This document shows positions 24,546 through 60,190 of a DNA stretch of 64,000 bases, one piece after another. The notes under the pieces were generated by a model. It did no database searches, was not told where the DNA came from, and saw nothing but the letters and a program-made list of their open reading frames with translations. This stretch comes from Eledone cirrhosa (taxonomy: Eukaryota): positions 319,858,001 to 319,922,000 of the forward strand of contig OZ024740.1 of NCBI GenBank assembly GCA_964016885.1, in the 5' to 3' direction. Position 1 is the stretch's first letter. Every line of letters begins with the position of its first letter. The translations under genes and the position numbers were made by a program.

Positions 24546-24610
24546 AATGTCATCCATAGTTAAGTTTGATCTATTTTTGGCAAATATGAAGACTTTGTTC
24601 CGGAGTAACT

Positions 24611-25636
24611 ATGGATGACATTAATATTATCACGCACGCTAGACAAACACGACTGGAATTTCAGAAGGAATACTGGACCAGAAATACATATAGTAATCTA
24701 TTCGGTATTACTATGGGCTCTAGTGATTCTGCCCAAATTACCGATCTTGTGGGCCTCTTTCTTCTATTTAACATAAATTCTTCTCCCCCCCCCCCCCTTA
24801 AAGGTGGTTTATATCGTGATGACTGTCTTCTTCTTTCCACTAACCTTAGCCTATCAGAAATTGAAAAAAATAAAAAACTTAGAACTTTCCTCAAAGACTA
24901 TTATAGTCTCACTATTACATTTGAAAACACCAGTAAAATAGTTACTTTCCTAGATATAACTTTAGACTTATCTACGGGTACCTACCAACCTTACCATAAA
25001 CCTAACCAAAACTTACATTACATACACTCACAATCCTATCACCCTAGATCTATCCTTAAAAACCTAGCATATAATATCTCACTCAGAATTTCTAACCTTT
25101 CATCTAACCAGGATGTATTCGATAAAAATGCGCTCTTTTATAACGAAGCTTTAGCTAGAAGCGGCCACAAAAACAAATTAGTCTATATACCATGCACCAA
25201 TAATACTTCAAACATACAACCCAATATTACCAACAAACACCAAATGAAAAACACACACCTAAATGCCACTTACACTACACCCAAAAATACCAACCTAAAA
25301 TTTAATTTCTCTACCTCTTCTCACATAAAATATAATAACTTTCAGAAAACCATTCATCCTAATACTCCAATATACGTTAATAACATTACTAACAAAATTC
25401 CTAATAATCAGACTAAAACACCTAAATCAGTTAATCAAACTAAACCTATATATAATAAATTCACTAATACTAATTCTCTTAGTAAACATCCTGATACATC
25501 GTATAAATATAAAAAACAACATCGAAACCGTAATAGACGAGTTACTTGGTGTAATGCTCCATTTAATCTACAAATTAAAGATAATATCCCTAAAAAATGT
25601 TTACTATCCAGAGAAAAACTTCCCGCCAAACCATAA
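24611..25636 (+). pseudogene. Penelope-like reverse transcriptase fragment, inverted relative to its EN/3' end
   Basis: FGITMGSSDSAQITDLVGLFLL, GGLYRDDCL, TFLDITLDL, YHKPN..YIHSQSYHP, RISNLSS, EALARSGH, VTWCNAPF. Confidence 0.9.
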
Positions 25637-28886: not shown

Positions 28887-28930
28887 ACCGTCCTGATGAA
28901 AGCCAGCCAAGACGGAAATGCATAGACGGT
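28887..28930 (+). ncRNA. Minimal type I hammerhead
   Basis: accgtc-CTGATGA-(weak stem II)-GAAA-tgc-ATA-gacggt; perfect 6-bp stem I; ATGCAT palindrome. Confidence 0.65.
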
Positions 28931-32803: not shown

Positions 32804-35141
32804 AGTTCCGTACTGTGTAATTCAAAGACAATACATATACCTATGTGTTGATATATAGTCGTAGTCGTGAACTTTGTATCTCAAGTAGATGCTAACTATT
32901 CGTATGTCTTTGTATAATCTTATGCTGGGTATTTCAGAATGGAATGGAATGAACCTCCGTCGGTTTAGATAATAAGATTTCCCATTGTACGATCAACGGA
33001 ATAGACTGACTACTCGTGAAATTAACGTGGAAGTTGTTTAGTATTCCACCAGCACGTGTACGCTAAACTTAATTCTCAGAAAGATTCAGTGTGGCACAGT
33101 GTGTGACAGTGTGTGACAAAGCTGGTCATTCAAATTACCCAGTACAGTCCATCAGACGAACTTCCAAACAGTTTCCATCTACCTAATTTCCCTTACAAGG
33201 CATGGGACGACCCGAGATAATGGTAAATGAGACTTGCCTATGATGTTACTCAGTGGAATCGAACACGGGACAATTTTATACTGTATATTTCAGAAATATT
33301 CTTTGTATTTCTATATGCTATTATACAGTATTGTACTGTATAGTACAAGGAAACCCGTAACGAGACGAACTTGTTTCAGCCATTGGAAAACGACCATCGC
33401 GAGGGAGCTACATTGTAGGCCCTGTTCGGTCACGAATGACCATGGTTTTTCACCGAGAAAGTTGCCATCCGAGGTACATGTCTGAGCAAGCTGTGTTTGT
33501 GGAAGACCAGCAGTAACCCATGCATACCAGTCTACCCTCTTCACACCACAGATGTTGTCCAAGGGAAAGGCAGACGCCGACACAGCTTGGTACCTGTGGC
33601 GTCGCAACTCATTTTTACAGCTGAGTGAACTGGAGCAACATGAAAAATAAAGTGTTTTGTTCAAGAACACAACGCACCGCTCGGTCTGAGAGTCGAATTC
33701 ACAACCTTATGATTGTGAGCTGAACACTCTAACCACTAAGTCACGTTCCTACTAGGCAGCAAATTGGGAGAATCGTTAGAGTATAGGACAAAATGTTTTG
33801 CAGTATTTATTTCAATTCTCTGCACTCTGAGTTCAAATCCAGCTGAGGTTAACTTTCTATTCGATAAAATAACGTACCCGTGAACTGGGGTGGATTTGCG
33901 GGATTATTAAAGAATGAGATGCCTTGTTATTGTAGCCTATTTGGATGATAAACTTAATCCGTTACCTAGTTTAACATCATAACCTCTCTCTTGGAGGGCC
34001 TTTAGCAGAGTCTAGTCTGTTGCAAGAAATAAGGATAGGTCCCCGGTTTAAGGATAACTCTCTCCCTCCCGTTCACCGAAAAGAGGCCATGAGCAGTGCC
34101 ATTCATTCCCTGGCTAAACAGTCGAAAGGGGTCTTTTACTTGACTATATTTTCCTAAGTACTTTATCTGGGATTGTTATAGCTTCCCTGTAACAAAGGAA
34201 GGTAATGTGGACTGGATGTAAGAGGACGTAACCCTGGCGAAACAAGTATATGATTGTATTTCTGTTCATTGCAAACCTGCAACCTCCCGTTGATATACAT
34301 ACAACTCAACAAGAGACTGACCTCGTAACAACATCGCGTGCTTAGAACGTTTTTGTATTTTTTTAGAACGGTTTTGTATTTCTTTTACAAGACTTCTAAT
34401 CTGAAAACGTGTGTTGAAACAGATATTGTTATACTTTGGGAGGGTCACAGCACACAAAAACAAGATGGTGTAGGACAGAACAAAGGAGAGACTGGGGTGT
34501 TCACGGAATGTGTGACAAAAGAGCTTTGACAACAAATAAACAACCATCTGGTTACTAAACCAACCAACTGAAAATTTGTAGTGAATTGAAGTGAAAACCA
34601 ACATGTGCATGTGTTTTTATTTGCAGTGTGACCCTTTAAGAAAAAGTAACAATATATTGTTTTAACTTATATCATGACTCTGTTTTCCTTTTAATGTTTT
34701 ATTGTTTTCCGGGATTTATTTTAACCTACAACATTATCAACATATGGATTACATTGAGTTCTTCAGGTAGACTGGACCCCACAGCTTACCGTGAATATCT
34801 GTGTGTGTATATACATATATATATATATATTAAAATAACAGATTAAAGTTTAAGCAAAGAATCGCTGCTTTCACCCTTAACGGGATCTTCTGAAACAAGT
34901 ATATGATTGTATTTCTGTTCAATGCAAAATTGCAGCCTCCCGTTGATATACATACAACTCAACAAGATCTTCAGAGTTTCAGAAGATCCTGTTAATGGTG
35001 AAAGCAGCGATTCTTTGCTTCAAATTTAATCTGTTATTTTAATAAATATTTGCTCTACGGTTCTTATATATCTGATATATATTTATCCTTATCGAGTCCT
35101 CTTTGGATTTTAGTTTTCAAATTTATTATTATTACTATATC

Positions 35142-35463: not shown

Positions 35464-35987
35464 ATATATAATATATATATATATATTATAAATATATATT
35501 ATATATATATATATATATAATATATATCCCGTAAGGATGAAAGGCAAAGTTAACCTCGGAGTTCAAATCCCGCCGAGGTTAACTTTGCCTTTCATCCTTA
35601 CGGGGTCGATAAAATAAAGTACCAGTAATGCACTGGGTATTTGCTGGCCTTGTGCCAATAGTCGAAACAATTATATATATATATATATAAGTTGAAATAA
35701 AATGAAAACGAAATTTCATTTCTCACTCTTAGTATGGCACTTACTTAAATGTAAGTATGTATGTATACGTACATACACACATGTATACAGACGTACAGTA
35801 GCATGCATATATATATATATATATACATATATACATACAGGTACACATACATATATGCACGCATCAGTTTAGCGGACGCTTATTATAACGCCGCTTTGTT
35901 CGTTTGTAAACAAACTGAACAGCCTGAATTTATGCCATACGGTGTTAAGGCAACTACGTCACCTTTTTGTTCAACAATGACACAGGA

Positions 35988-36030
35988 ACGATGTACATGT
36001 TTCAAGCTTGTTAACTATCATCAGCACCGT
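35988..36030 (-). ncRNA. Minimal type I hammerhead (also 36461-36503, 36926-36968, 37445-37487, 37924-37966)
   Basis: acggtg-CTGATGA-t-ag(t/c)t(aaca)agct-t-GAAAC-(at/ta)-GTA-catcgt. Confidence 0.85.
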
Positions 36031-36266
36031 ATACCCATCTGCCAGATAGTTGAACGTTCGAAAGTATATACTTTCCTTATGAAAATTAACGGCTGAGCAG
36101 CCTAATTTGCATATTGAGTGAGTTAAATCGGTCAGGCATACCGAAAACGATAAGTTGAAATAAAATGAAAACGAAATTTCATTTCTCACTCTTAGTATGG
36201 CACTTACTTAAATGTAAGTATGTATGTATACGTACATAAATATATGTATACAGACGTACAGTAGCA

Positions 36267-36304
<38 letters not shown>

Positions 36305-36739
36305 TACATACAGGTACACATACATATATGCACGCATCAGTTTAGCGGACGCTTATTATAACGCCGCTTTGTTCGTTTGTAAACAAACTGAACAACCTGA
36401 ATTTATGCCATACGGTGTTAAGGCAACCACGTCACCTTTTTGTTCAACACTGACACAGGAACGATGTACTAGTTTCAAGCTTGTTAGCTATCATCAGCAC
36501 CGTATAACCATCTGCCATATAGTTGAACGTTCGAAAGTATATACTTTCCTTATGAAAATTAACGGCTGAGCAGCCTAATTTGCATATTGAGTGAGTTAAA
36601 TCGGTCAGGCATACCGAAAACGATAAGTTGAAATAAAATGAAAACGAAATTTCATTTCTCACTCTTAGTATGGCACTTACTTAAATGTAAGTATGTATGT
36701 ATACGTACATACACACATGTATACAGACGTACAGTAGCA

Positions 36740-36775
<36 letters not shown>

Positions 36776-37204
36776 CAGGTACACATACATATATGCACGC
36801 ATCAGTTTAGCGGACGCTTATTATAACGCCGCTTTGTTCGTTTGTAAACAAACTGAACAGCCTGAATTTATGCCATACGGTGTTAAGGCAACTACGTCAC
36901 CTTTTTGTTCAACACTGACACAGGAACGATGTACATGTTTCAAGCTTGTTAACTATCATCAGCACCGTATACCCATCTGCCAGATAGTTGAACGTTCGAA
37001 AGTATATACTTTCCTTATGAAAATTAACGGCTGAGCAGCCTAATTTGCATATTGAGTGAGTTAAATCGGTCAGGCATACCGAAAACGATAAGTTGAAATA
37101 AAATGAAAACGAAATTTCATTTCTCACTCTTAGTATGGCACTTACTTAAATGTAAGTATGTATGTATACGTACATAAATATATGTATACAGACGTACAGT
37201 AGCA

Positions 37205-37288
<84 letters not shown>

Positions 37289-37723
37289 TACATACAGGTA
37301 CACATACATATATGCACGCATCAGTTTAGCGGACGCTTATTATAACGCCGCTTTGTTCGTTTGTAAACAAACTGAACAACCTGAATTTATGCCATACGGT
37401 GTTAAGGCAACCACGTCACCTTTTTGTTCAACACTGACACAGGAACGATGTACTAGTTTCAAGCTTGTTAGCTATCATCAGCACCGTATAACCATCTGCC
37501 ATATAGTTGAACGTTCGAAAGTATATACTTTCCTTATGAAAATTAACGGCTGAGCAGCCTAATTTGCATATTGAGTGAGTTAAATCGGTCAGGCATACCG
37601 AAAACGATAAGTTGAAATAAAATGAAAACGAAATTTCATTTCTCACTCTTAGTATGGCACTTACTTAAATGTAAGTATGTATGTATACGTACATACACAC
37701 ATGTATACAGACGTACAGTAGCA

Positions 37724-37773
<50 letters not shown>

Positions 37774-38202
37774 CAGGTACACATACATATATGCACGCAT
37801 CAGTTTAGCGGACGCTTATTATAACGCCGCTTTGTTCGTTTGTAAACAAACTGAACAGCCTGAATTTATGCCATACGGTGTTAAGGCAACCACGTCACCT
37901 TTTTGTTCAACACTGACACAGGAACGATGTACATGTTTCAAGCTTGTTAACTATCATCAGCACCGTATACCCATCTGCCAGATAGTTGAACGTTCGAAAG
38001 TATATACTTTCCTTATGAAAATTAACGGCTGAGCAGCCTAATTTGCATATTGAGTGAGTTAAATCGGTCAGGCATACCGAAAACGATAAGTTGAAATAAA
38101 ATGAAAACGAAATTTCATTTCTCACTCTTAGTATGGCACTTACTTAAATGTAAGTATGTATGTATACGTACATACATATATGTATACAGACGTACAGTAG
38201 CA

Positions 38203-38256
<54 letters not shown>

Positions 38257-38396
38257 TATACATATATACATACAGGTACACATACATATATGCACGCATC
38301 AGTTTAGCGGACGCTTATTATAACGCCGCTTTGTTCGTTTGTAAACAAACTGAACAGCCTGAATTTATGCCATACGGTGTTAAGGCAGATGGGTAT

Positions 38397-38439
38397 ACGG
38401 TGCTGATGATAGCTAACAAGCTTGAAACATGTACATCGT
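38397..38439 (+). ncRNA. Minimal type I hammerhead in the inverted unit
   Basis: acggtgCTGATGAtagctaacaagcttGAAACatGTAcatcgt. Confidence 0.85.
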
Positions 38440-38724: not shown

Positions 38725-38909
38725 GATATATTAACAAATGGAAACTATATTTATAAAACCATATTTATTTCATTATACATATTTCAAGGACACCAAGTTA
38801 AATTATGGTGTGCTTTCATCAGATAAAATATAATATAGATCAGTTTTATAAATAAATATTGACATACTCTTAAAGAATGCGACCATTTCTGTTGGAAGCT
38901 CCCGGATAG

Positions 38910-44114: not shown

Positions 44115-44283
44115 TTAATTTGAGAGGTACAGAGTTCGATTCTCTGTAGTGTCTGGTGGTCATTTTTTCTGTCAATAGGGACATTTTGCTCAATTTTCTA
44201 AACTATTGTCTTTTGTTTTCTCTTATTCCGAACTATTCGTCGCATACCACCATGTGTTTGTTTTCTTCCCTCCGTTTTCCCAC

Positions 44284-44387
44284 TGTCCCGATAACTTAAT
44301 TGAGTTATCGCTCGCACTGATTTTAGGTATATAGTCTTTAATGCGCCGAAATACCAACGATAAATCAGAAGACTACTGAAGAGGACA
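44284..44387 (+). ncRNA. Rearranged (non-circularly permuted) hammerhead ribozyme, copy A
   Basis: tgtcc-hairpin-ctcgca-ctgattt-ta-ggtat-A-tagtctt-taa-tgcg-cc-GAAA-tacc-aacgat-aaatcag-aagacta-CTGAAGA-ggaca. Confidence 0.75.
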
Positions 44388-44675
44388 TTTTAACCCTTGT
44401 CTATTTTTATTCATATATATATATATATATCTGAACATCGAATGCTTTTACCCAAAAAGTAGAACTGGTCTACATCATTGGATGCAAAGGAAGTCGCAGG
44501 TTTTATGTTGGAGTGACATTCTCCTAGACAGGTGTCTTAATGAAGACTATAGGAGGTCTCTCACTCCACTGACCCTCTAAAAAATACATTATTGGATGGC
44601 CGTTGACTCTCCTGAGATCCTCCGCCCTTTGACAGGTTTTGTTTTTTATCTCGCAGGGTGTCCAAATCACTCTCC

Positions 44676-53332: not shown

Positions 53333-53401
<69 letters not shown>

Positions 53402-53447
53402 AATAATGGAGCTGCGGTGCTGCAAATGGGTTACATATGAAAAAGTT

Positions 53448-53555
53448 TGTCCTCATCAGTGGCCATCCAACCGTCGTAGGCATTTCGTCGCATTAAAGGC
53501 CATATACCTCAGGTTGGTGCGAGCAACGGCTAAAAAAAAAAAAGTCGTTGGGACA
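53448..53555 (-). ncRNA. Rearranged hammerhead ribozyme, copy B
   Basis: tgtcc-hairpin-ctcgca-ccaacc-tg-aggtat-A-tggcc-tttaa-tgcga-c-GAAA-tgcct-acgac-ggttgg-at-ggcca-CTGATGA-ggaca. Confidence 0.78.
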
Positions 53556-53811
53556 CGTAAATAAAGGGGACGCTAGGGTAAACAAACAAAATGGTTTAAG
53601 CAGCAGAAAGTGATGAAGAAGGAAACAAGTCCCAGATTTCTATGAATATAAATTCGGTGGAATCGTGAACGAGAGAATAAAGACCATCAAACCTGGTTGA
53701 AATGTGAGCAAGGAAGGAATTTCGCACAGGTCTAACGGGAGGAAGAAGGGGTCTGGTCTGCGAATTCGGTAAATATAAGTTCTGTGAATATATATATATA
53801 TATATAAACAG

Positions 53812-59729: not shown

Positions 59730-59770
<41 letters not shown>

Positions 59771-59830
59771 AAACATGGGAAGAAAGAGGAAAACTGCGTG
59801 GTTGCACATGGGTTACATATTATAAAATTA

Positions 59831-59933
59831 GTCCCTCATCAGTGATTTGCCAACCATCATTGGTATTTCATCGCATTAAAAATCATATACCTCAGGTTGG
59901 TGCGAGCAATAACTAAAATAAGCTATTGGGACA
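59831..59933 (-). ncRNA. Rearranged hammerhead ribozyme, copy C
   Basis: tgtcc-hairpin-ctcgca-ccaacc-tg-aggtat-A-tgattt-ttaa-tgcga-t-GAAA-tacc-aatgat-ggttgg-c-aaatca-CTGATGA-gggac. Confidence 0.78.
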
Positions 59934-60190
59934 AGTGAATCGTGTAAAGCGAGTGAGACAAGTAAACAACATAGAAGGAAAAGCAAACCGAAGGTAGGAA
60001 AAAAGCAAGCAACATGATGGTTATCCGGTCAGCATAATCTGGGTGAATTTCATGGGCGGTCAGAAAACAGACCATCCGACGTGAATGAGATGTGAGAAAG
60101 AAAGAATCCCACTACTAACGAGGGTGTGCGCTTGCATGTGTGATTTGTATGCATCTGTATGACTGCCTGTTTATTTTTTCATCTATATCT

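Follow-up and report, generated by a model that had tools for sequence, protein, structure and literature searches.

Can the strands of a hammerhead ribozyme be joined in an order that no circular permutation of the canonical types allows, and if so, what is such a ribozyme doing in an animal chromosome? The question is raised by a stretch of 64,000 nucleotides of the Eledone cirrhosa genome (assembly GCA_964016885.1, contig OZ024740.1, positions 319,858,001 to 319,922,000; hereafter the window, numbered from its first letter), in which a first-pass annotation noted a hammerhead core with rearranged strands at 44284-44387 on the plus strand. Here, we describe a computational analysis of this element, copy A, and of its relatives across the 3.0-Gb assembly. 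Judged from its sequence, copy A is a real and well-supported new variant of the type-SGC hammerhead, with catalysis predicted, and the repeat that carries it is best read as a retrozyme-like, non-autonomous Penelope-like element (PLE). We place at roughly 0.8 the probability that this is the S-G-C hammerhead of an abundant non-coding repeat, predicted to cut the repeat transcript for PLE-type copying in trans.

Block order and predicted fold of copy A

Eckert et al. (2023; PMC10085705) divide the hammerhead into blocks S, G and C, and ribozymes in which these follow one another in that order, type SGC, were shown to cleave. Copy A contains the CUGANGA, GAAA and NUH motifs, each flanked by stems I, II and III according to a strand script, and both this script and a generic descriptor return the non-circular order S-G-C. 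The plus strand begins with the 5' strand of a junction-closing helix, Pa (44284-44287, partner 44384-44387), followed by the Pb hairpin (44289-44310), which is assigned to the predicted four-way junction and covaries, and by the 5' strand of Pc (44312-44316, partner 44342-44346), a distal continuation of stem II with weak covariation. The 5' strand of the brace, the covarying helix that links stems I and II, occupies 44317-44323 and pairs with 44362-44368. Block S (44326-44338) comprises the 5' strands of stem III (44326-44330) and stem I (44332-44338) and an AUA triplet, within which the cut is predicted after A44331 (H17). Block G (44342-44355) is made up of the Pc 3' strand, C11.1 (44347), GAAA (44348-44351) and the stem III 3' strand (44351-44355), and it is separated by the brace 3' strand from block C (44369-44387), which contains the stem I 3' strand (44369-44375), CUGAAGA (44376-44382), G10.1 (44383) and the Pa 3' strand. 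A script check of coordinates located every helix strand named by the first-pass annotation where it had been placed, including the pairs Pc 44313-16/44342-45, brace 44317-23/44362-68, stem III 44326-30/44351-55 and stem I 44332-38/44369-75.

Within 44131-44540 there is a single CUGANGA and a single GAAA. A generic descriptor that accepts the three hammerhead blocks in any order finds copy A as the sole SGC match in the window and finds none across 40 shuffled windows, and Rfam at its gathering threshold has no match anywhere in the window. Two further copies that had been claimed alongside copy A were located, both on the minus strand: a family B copy at 53378-53788 (ribozyme 53448-53555, predicted cut after 53503) and a family C copy at 59755-60095 (ribozyme 59831-59933, predicted cut after 59886). 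Both escape the any-order descriptor because only one pair, 10.1-11.1, follows CUGANGA. Stem II is just 1-2 bp long, with one further helix probably stacked on it. A resemblance to the twister ribozyme was also considered, since the word UAAUGCG is twister-like, and was rejected because the GAG after P2 and the GU..AAG.C block of P4 are absent.

The fold was evaluated in an alignment of 30 representatives, consisting of the window copy and 29 of 42 cluster medoids, with near-duplicates and large-indel copies left out; the rows are related to one another and were hand-picked out of core-selected matches. In this alignment 92.2% of 1,049 cells are paired and 18 of the 35 pairs have two-sided changes. 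None of 500 shuffles scored as high for pairing plus double changes, and slid-structure controls were paired at 26-43%. On a tree there are 16 double changes in which both sides of a pair change on one and the same branch and pairing is kept, as compared with a null mean of 0.9 and a maximum of 6 in 1000; this comparison is supportive rather than a formal test, because the rows are related and the tree draws on the columns being tested. Double changes affect 5 of 6 pairs in stem I, 5 of 6 in the brace and 5 of 7 in the Pb hairpin. Pa is 87.5% paired, with three rows one column out of register and G-C replaced by A-U in 6 of the 30, while Pc is weak (82.7% paired, a double change in one of five pairs). 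Stem III, paired at 97.3%, is different yet complementary in older families, as read by eye. Covariation thus supports both the non-circular strand order and the extra helix that the first-pass annotation had proposed, the latter corresponding to the helix through which stems I and II interact in SGC ribozymes.

Positions 10.1 and 11.1 pair in 27 of the 30 rows (A-U in 10, U-A in 10, G-U in 4 and G-C in 3). Two other registers fit less well, a 'core-split' register in which 11.1 is paired from upstream (8 of 30) and a bulged-N register (17 of 30). In most subfamilies the nucleotide preceding 11.1 finds its partner in the upstream strand, suggesting that Pc stacks on 10.1-11.1. We infer a fold in which a one-pair stem II stacks on Pc, Pa and the hairpin complete a four-way junction, and a 3-4-nt linker together with the brace keeps stems I and II side by side.

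Copy number and insertion anatomy of the repeat

None of the three window copies is isolated. First-look candidates number 1,134 for family A, 1,416 for family B and 1,107 for family C, and these families are young, with 96-100% identity in nearly all of 40 scored candidates. The three copies reported at the outset are real, each as a member of its own family of more than 1,000 candidates, and the accompanying statement that their flanks barely align does not hold, as block-wise homology among the three families extends over the whole repeat unit. A tight pattern matches the genome 3,142 times and the control not at all; a looser core pattern (13,521 matches, 20 in the control) exposes many further subfamilies; and another pattern (139 matches, 1 in the control) recovers largely older families with differing stems. 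Members of such older families (L254-L283) have the identical block order, GUA or GUC sites and other stems, and many of their copies begin near the predicted cut. A search of metagenome contigs gave no match.

Conservation of the core was assessed with a core-blind pattern in which the core letters are free. It yields 10,744 genomic matches and none in the control; among the first 100, read by eye, 10 carry a single core substitution, at scattered positions, and the core is present in every subfamily seen. The catalytic nucleotides are fixed across subfamilies with diverged stems; H17 is either A or C, and N7 varies freely. What the first-pass annotation overlooked is that the motif is the ribozyme of a very abundant retrozyme-like repeat.

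Tandem copies yielded 33 natural cut-to-cut units of 502-679 nt with one ribozyme each, and at one locus five ribozymes are spaced 533 nt apart. Five example units are 65-68% pyrimidine. The longest stop-free frame is 206 codons and no conserved open reading frame (ORF) was seen, nor is a PLE ORF common to the flanks of the loci. Circular folds of three units were just slightly better than those of shuffled sequences, with 37-51% of bases paired and no rod-like structure. The 679-nt unit (L241) includes about 50 nt captured from another repeat, which also occurs in the window at 34846-35026. A 3.3-kb array on C2, considered as a full-length parent, proved to be a local tandem duplication with fragments of long interspersed nuclear elements (LINEs); it has four copies (L086-L092) and contains a copy of family C along with LINE fragments of two kinds.

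Individual insertions are mostly incomplete. The window's family A copy (44216-44418, plus strand; 95-100% identical to a natural unit over 44233-44418) is 5'-truncated and is followed by a (TA)n tract. It reaches about 100-115 nt upstream of the predicted cut and 85 nt downstream of it and, being truncated, could not yield unit-length RNA. Among 202 uncensored 3' ends, counted after a perhaps imperfect de-duplication of overlapping loci by junction sequence, 175 map to +60 to +129 relative to the cut, and (TA)4 marks the junction in 154 of the 202. The 5' ends vary through 5' truncation, many copies have an inverted 5' arm, and of 65 long arms 21 extend beyond a second cut site. A microsatellite target, 5' truncation, an inverted 5' copy and partial tandem arrangement are among the marks of a non-autonomous PLE, and all are found here; Craig et al. 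(2021; PMC8557442, section 6) describe for PLEs the combination of partial tandems with inverted 5' arms at (TA)n targets.

The 5' ends also bear on the predicted cut. Eight of 98 places (the first 100 pattern matches on contig 1 minus a self-reference artefact and a mirror hit) begin 0-10 nt 3' of it, as compared with 2.0 expected from the upstream 5'-end rate (P about 0.001). Of 28 TA tract junctions read by eye, in a set that overlaps the first in a few places, 23 fall at 0 to +11, four of them ambiguously, and 5 at -2 to -16. Many old copies lose homology within 15 nt of GAAA, in noisy data. Copying that begins downstream of the cut and usually reads through it would imply a template that is circular or uncut at that site.

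Proposed mobilisation of the repeat and alternative readings

We propose that the ribozyme likely cuts the repeat transcript after AUA to release unit-length RNA, which would probably be circular. A PLE acting in trans would then reverse transcribe this RNA and insert the product at (TA)n tracts, with priming presumably at AU-rich sites 60-130 nt past the cut. Young Neptune-like PLEs are candidates for the mobiliser. They are very abundant (59,579 first-look candidates) and intact, have a 927-residue frame that lacks an early start codon of its own (L123:1714-5650, L124-L132), and show the same insertion anatomy as this repeat. Their pseudo-long terminal repeat (pLTR) of about 580 nt carries a canonical-order, minimal hammerhead with a CUUGAGA core variant; as it has no homology to the units, these elements were rejected as the sequence parent. 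Also rejected was a second young PLE (1,789 matches to an endonuclease motif; L284-L313), in which the endonuclease is C-terminal; it has a long CA-rich 3' region, and no hammerhead core was seen within 1.5 kb. Pfam provides no name for either PLE protein. The window itself contains a fragment of a PLE reverse transcriptase (24590-25633, plus strand; 348 residues), for which Pfam likewise names nothing.

A possible ancestor is suggested by Naiads, PLEs for which Craig et al. (2021) list 'half cores' in eight members, Naiad_Ovul among them, and report canonical hammerheads to be lacking. The published Octopus consensuses Naiad_Obim and Naiad_Ovul have, by eye, the same scaffold in their last ~170 bases: a closing strand, hairpin, Pc strand, brace strand and three-base linker, followed by the S block, G block, six-base linker, brace and C block. 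Both ends share the hairpin-loop word and the six-base linker word with this repeat, and (TA)n targeting, partial tandems and inverted 5' copies are common to the two groups. The Naiads differ in that they encode an endonuclease-reverse transcriptase (N-terminal GIY-YIG, C-terminal reverse transcriptase), whereas this element has no ORF, and in that the base after the core is unpaired with 11.1 at their ends, so that the register of stem II is ambiguous there. Cephalopod Naiads have moreover been called long inactive (Craig et al. 2021), whereas subfamilies here are 96-100% identical. A scaffold motif search extended to other Naiad consensuses recovered only the two Octopus ones and left four motifs without a match, in text whose line breaks can hide matches. 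Two motif searches for Naiad in this genome returned one chance-like match and none, respectively, which does not imply absence. The likeness in scaffold suggests that the ribozyme descends from Naiad 3' ends.

Several observations weigh against the proposal that an S-G-C ribozyme serves PLE-type copying. In the young families double changes are absent from stem III and limited to a single pair in each of Pc and Pa; the alignment rows are, as stated, related and hand-picked from core-selected matches, and the tree derives from the same columns. The usual 10.1-11.1 pair of hammerheads is G-C, and here it is frequently A-U or U-A. In families A and B, G10.1 is able to lengthen Pa instead; in copy A the duplex so extended has a predicted energy of -5.4 as compared with -2.1 kcal/mol, and the nested minimum-energy fold adopts it (z = -1.9). 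According to these models a Pa-extended, inactive fold would compete with the active one, possibly as an off state. About 90% of copies read through the cut site, and the searches of this genome recovered no autonomous element that carries the ribozyme. The enrichment of 5' ends is only suggestive as a cleavage footprint, because the excess is highest at +7 and +10, positions with TA microhomology, because stalling at the knot could produce the same picture, and because there are further hot spots (for example, 17 ends in the -100 bin as compared with 22 in the 0 bin); the ambiguous TA junctions count against it as well.

Three other explanations draw on parts of the same evidence. The core, though real, might form as a dimer of canonical (type I-III) order, its strands supplied by two tandem units or by two molecules, and not as a single SGC knot. 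Tandem units do exist, stem II has just 1-2 bp, the hammerheads of axolotl retrozymes are much more efficient at cleavage when dimeric (PMC7229834), and covariation reads pairing in cis and in trans alike. Against this, the 3-4-nt linker between stems I and II and the brace are arranged as in SGC constructs that cleave as monomers (PMC10085705), a canonical order would require pairing over ~480 nt, and the Naiad consensus ends hold a single copy of the scaffold; we therefore consider a dimer unlikely. That the motif is instead a knotted, hammerhead-derived 3'-end signal for a PLE reverse transcriptase, cutting poorly or not at all, would account for the read-through of the cut site in the majority of copies, the competing Pa register and the position of 3' ends just downstream of the motif. 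We regard this as very improbable, since the catalytic nucleotides stay fixed while the stems diverge, with H17 restricted to A or C and N7 free as catalysis predicts, and since 5' ends drop off at the predicted cut.

Finally, the ribozyme could be correctly described and yet be mobilised by non-PLE machinery, either LINEs or tandem amplification at the DNA level. LINE fragments are common at the loci, the units lack homology to the abundant Neptune-like pLTR, and the two motif searches detected no young Naiad in this genome. This possibility appears unlikely to us, in that the (TA)n targets, like the partial tandems and the inversion of 5' arms, agree with the published description of PLEs (PMC8557442), an autonomous PLE of this very genome has the same anatomy, and Naiad ends and the repeat have the scaffold in common.

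Comparison with Naiads, retrozymes and type-SGC ribozymes

The Naiad ends allow a broader interpretation, to which we give somewhat better than even odds: non-circularly permuted hammerheads, rather than being rarities of RNA-only replicons, would be the standard ribozyme of Naiads and of their non-autonomous circular-RNA parasites in animals, in a four-way-junction SGC form that descriptors miss and that amounts to a circular permutation of a non-circular permutation. If this were true, it would overturn the statement that Naiads are without hammerheads and would expose a hidden class of retrozymes. The ribozyme described here offers a possible explanation of the Naiad 'half cores' and indicates that censuses of hammerheads and retrozymes made with type I-III descriptors undercount. 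It would also provide a direct test system for the use of self-cleavage by PLEs.

Among known repeats, this element most resembles the non-LTR (long terminal repeat) retrozymes of animals (Cervera and de la Pena 2020; Li, Clavereau and Pollet 2026), non-coding tandem units with one hammerhead each and a proposed dependence on PLEs (PMC7229834), in that it has a high copy number and forms non-coding tandems with one ribozyme per unit. Those retrozymes are defined by type I hammerheads and were sought with type I descriptors (PMC7229834; bioRxiv 10.64898/2026.07.22.740005), whereas the hammerhead here is SGC, and its 502-679-nt units occur mainly as dispersed, truncated partial tandems with inverted arms. 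The window also holds what resembles an ordinary type I retrozyme array (35687-38387, minus strand), in which ~5.6 units, 465-473 bp long, each show the canonical order of CUGAUGA, short hairpin and GAAA; dispersed copies lie on the plus strand near 38403, 53063 and 58165. A type I (CGS) hammerhead-like descriptor match with stems of 8, 3 and 7 pairs lies at 38775-38822 on the minus strand, and another repeat family with a canonical-order, hammerhead-like core is found at 28893 on the plus strand, with similar sequences at L126 and L248.

The permutation class itself has been published; what appears new is the scaffold and its setting in an animal genome. According to Eckert et al. (2023; PMC10085705), type SGC was found solely in metatranscriptomes, HRIMA-1 being an example, and the genomes of known organisms furnished nothing but one GCS candidate. 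In the open-access text searched, which covers neither subscription journals nor bioRxiv supplements, the term 'type-SGC' occurs in that paper only, and an animal report of the present form was not found. Rearranged hammerheads from Xenopus and a cockroach gut, mentioned in the first-pass annotation, are absent from the main text of Eckert et al. (2023), and a literature search found no relevant paper.

In this type a three-base linker joins stem I to stem II, and a helix binds the two stems on their other sides (PMC10085705); a pseudoknot helix between these stems is common in canonical hammerheads as well (PMC3088659). The type is further characterized by covariation in stems I, II and the I-II interaction helix, which is found here also. 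The present form has in common with HRIMA-1 and its variants the S-G-C order, the full core, the short linker from stem I to stem II, the helix that joins the far sides of these stems and a variable linker from stem III to that helix. It departs from HRIMA-1 in the route of the chain. In HRIMA-1 stem II is a continuous 5-bp helix, and its 5' strand continues into a brace partner that is 3'-terminal. In the present form the break in the chain follows 10.1, the distal part of stem II and the brace partner come from the 5' side, and a closing helix and a hairpin give a four-way junction. The sequence of stem I is fixed in HRIMA-1 and varies in this family, and these differences set the family outside the definition of HRIMA-1. 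With a single-pair stem II and a four-way junction, it would offer a new hammerhead scaffold for structure and engineering, and natural variation among its copies is sufficient for mapping the fold. Whereas HRIMA-1 is known from metatranscriptomes, this form is present in more than 13,000 chromosomal copies, and with it non-circular RNA permutation would shift from metatranscriptome contigs to an animal chromosome.
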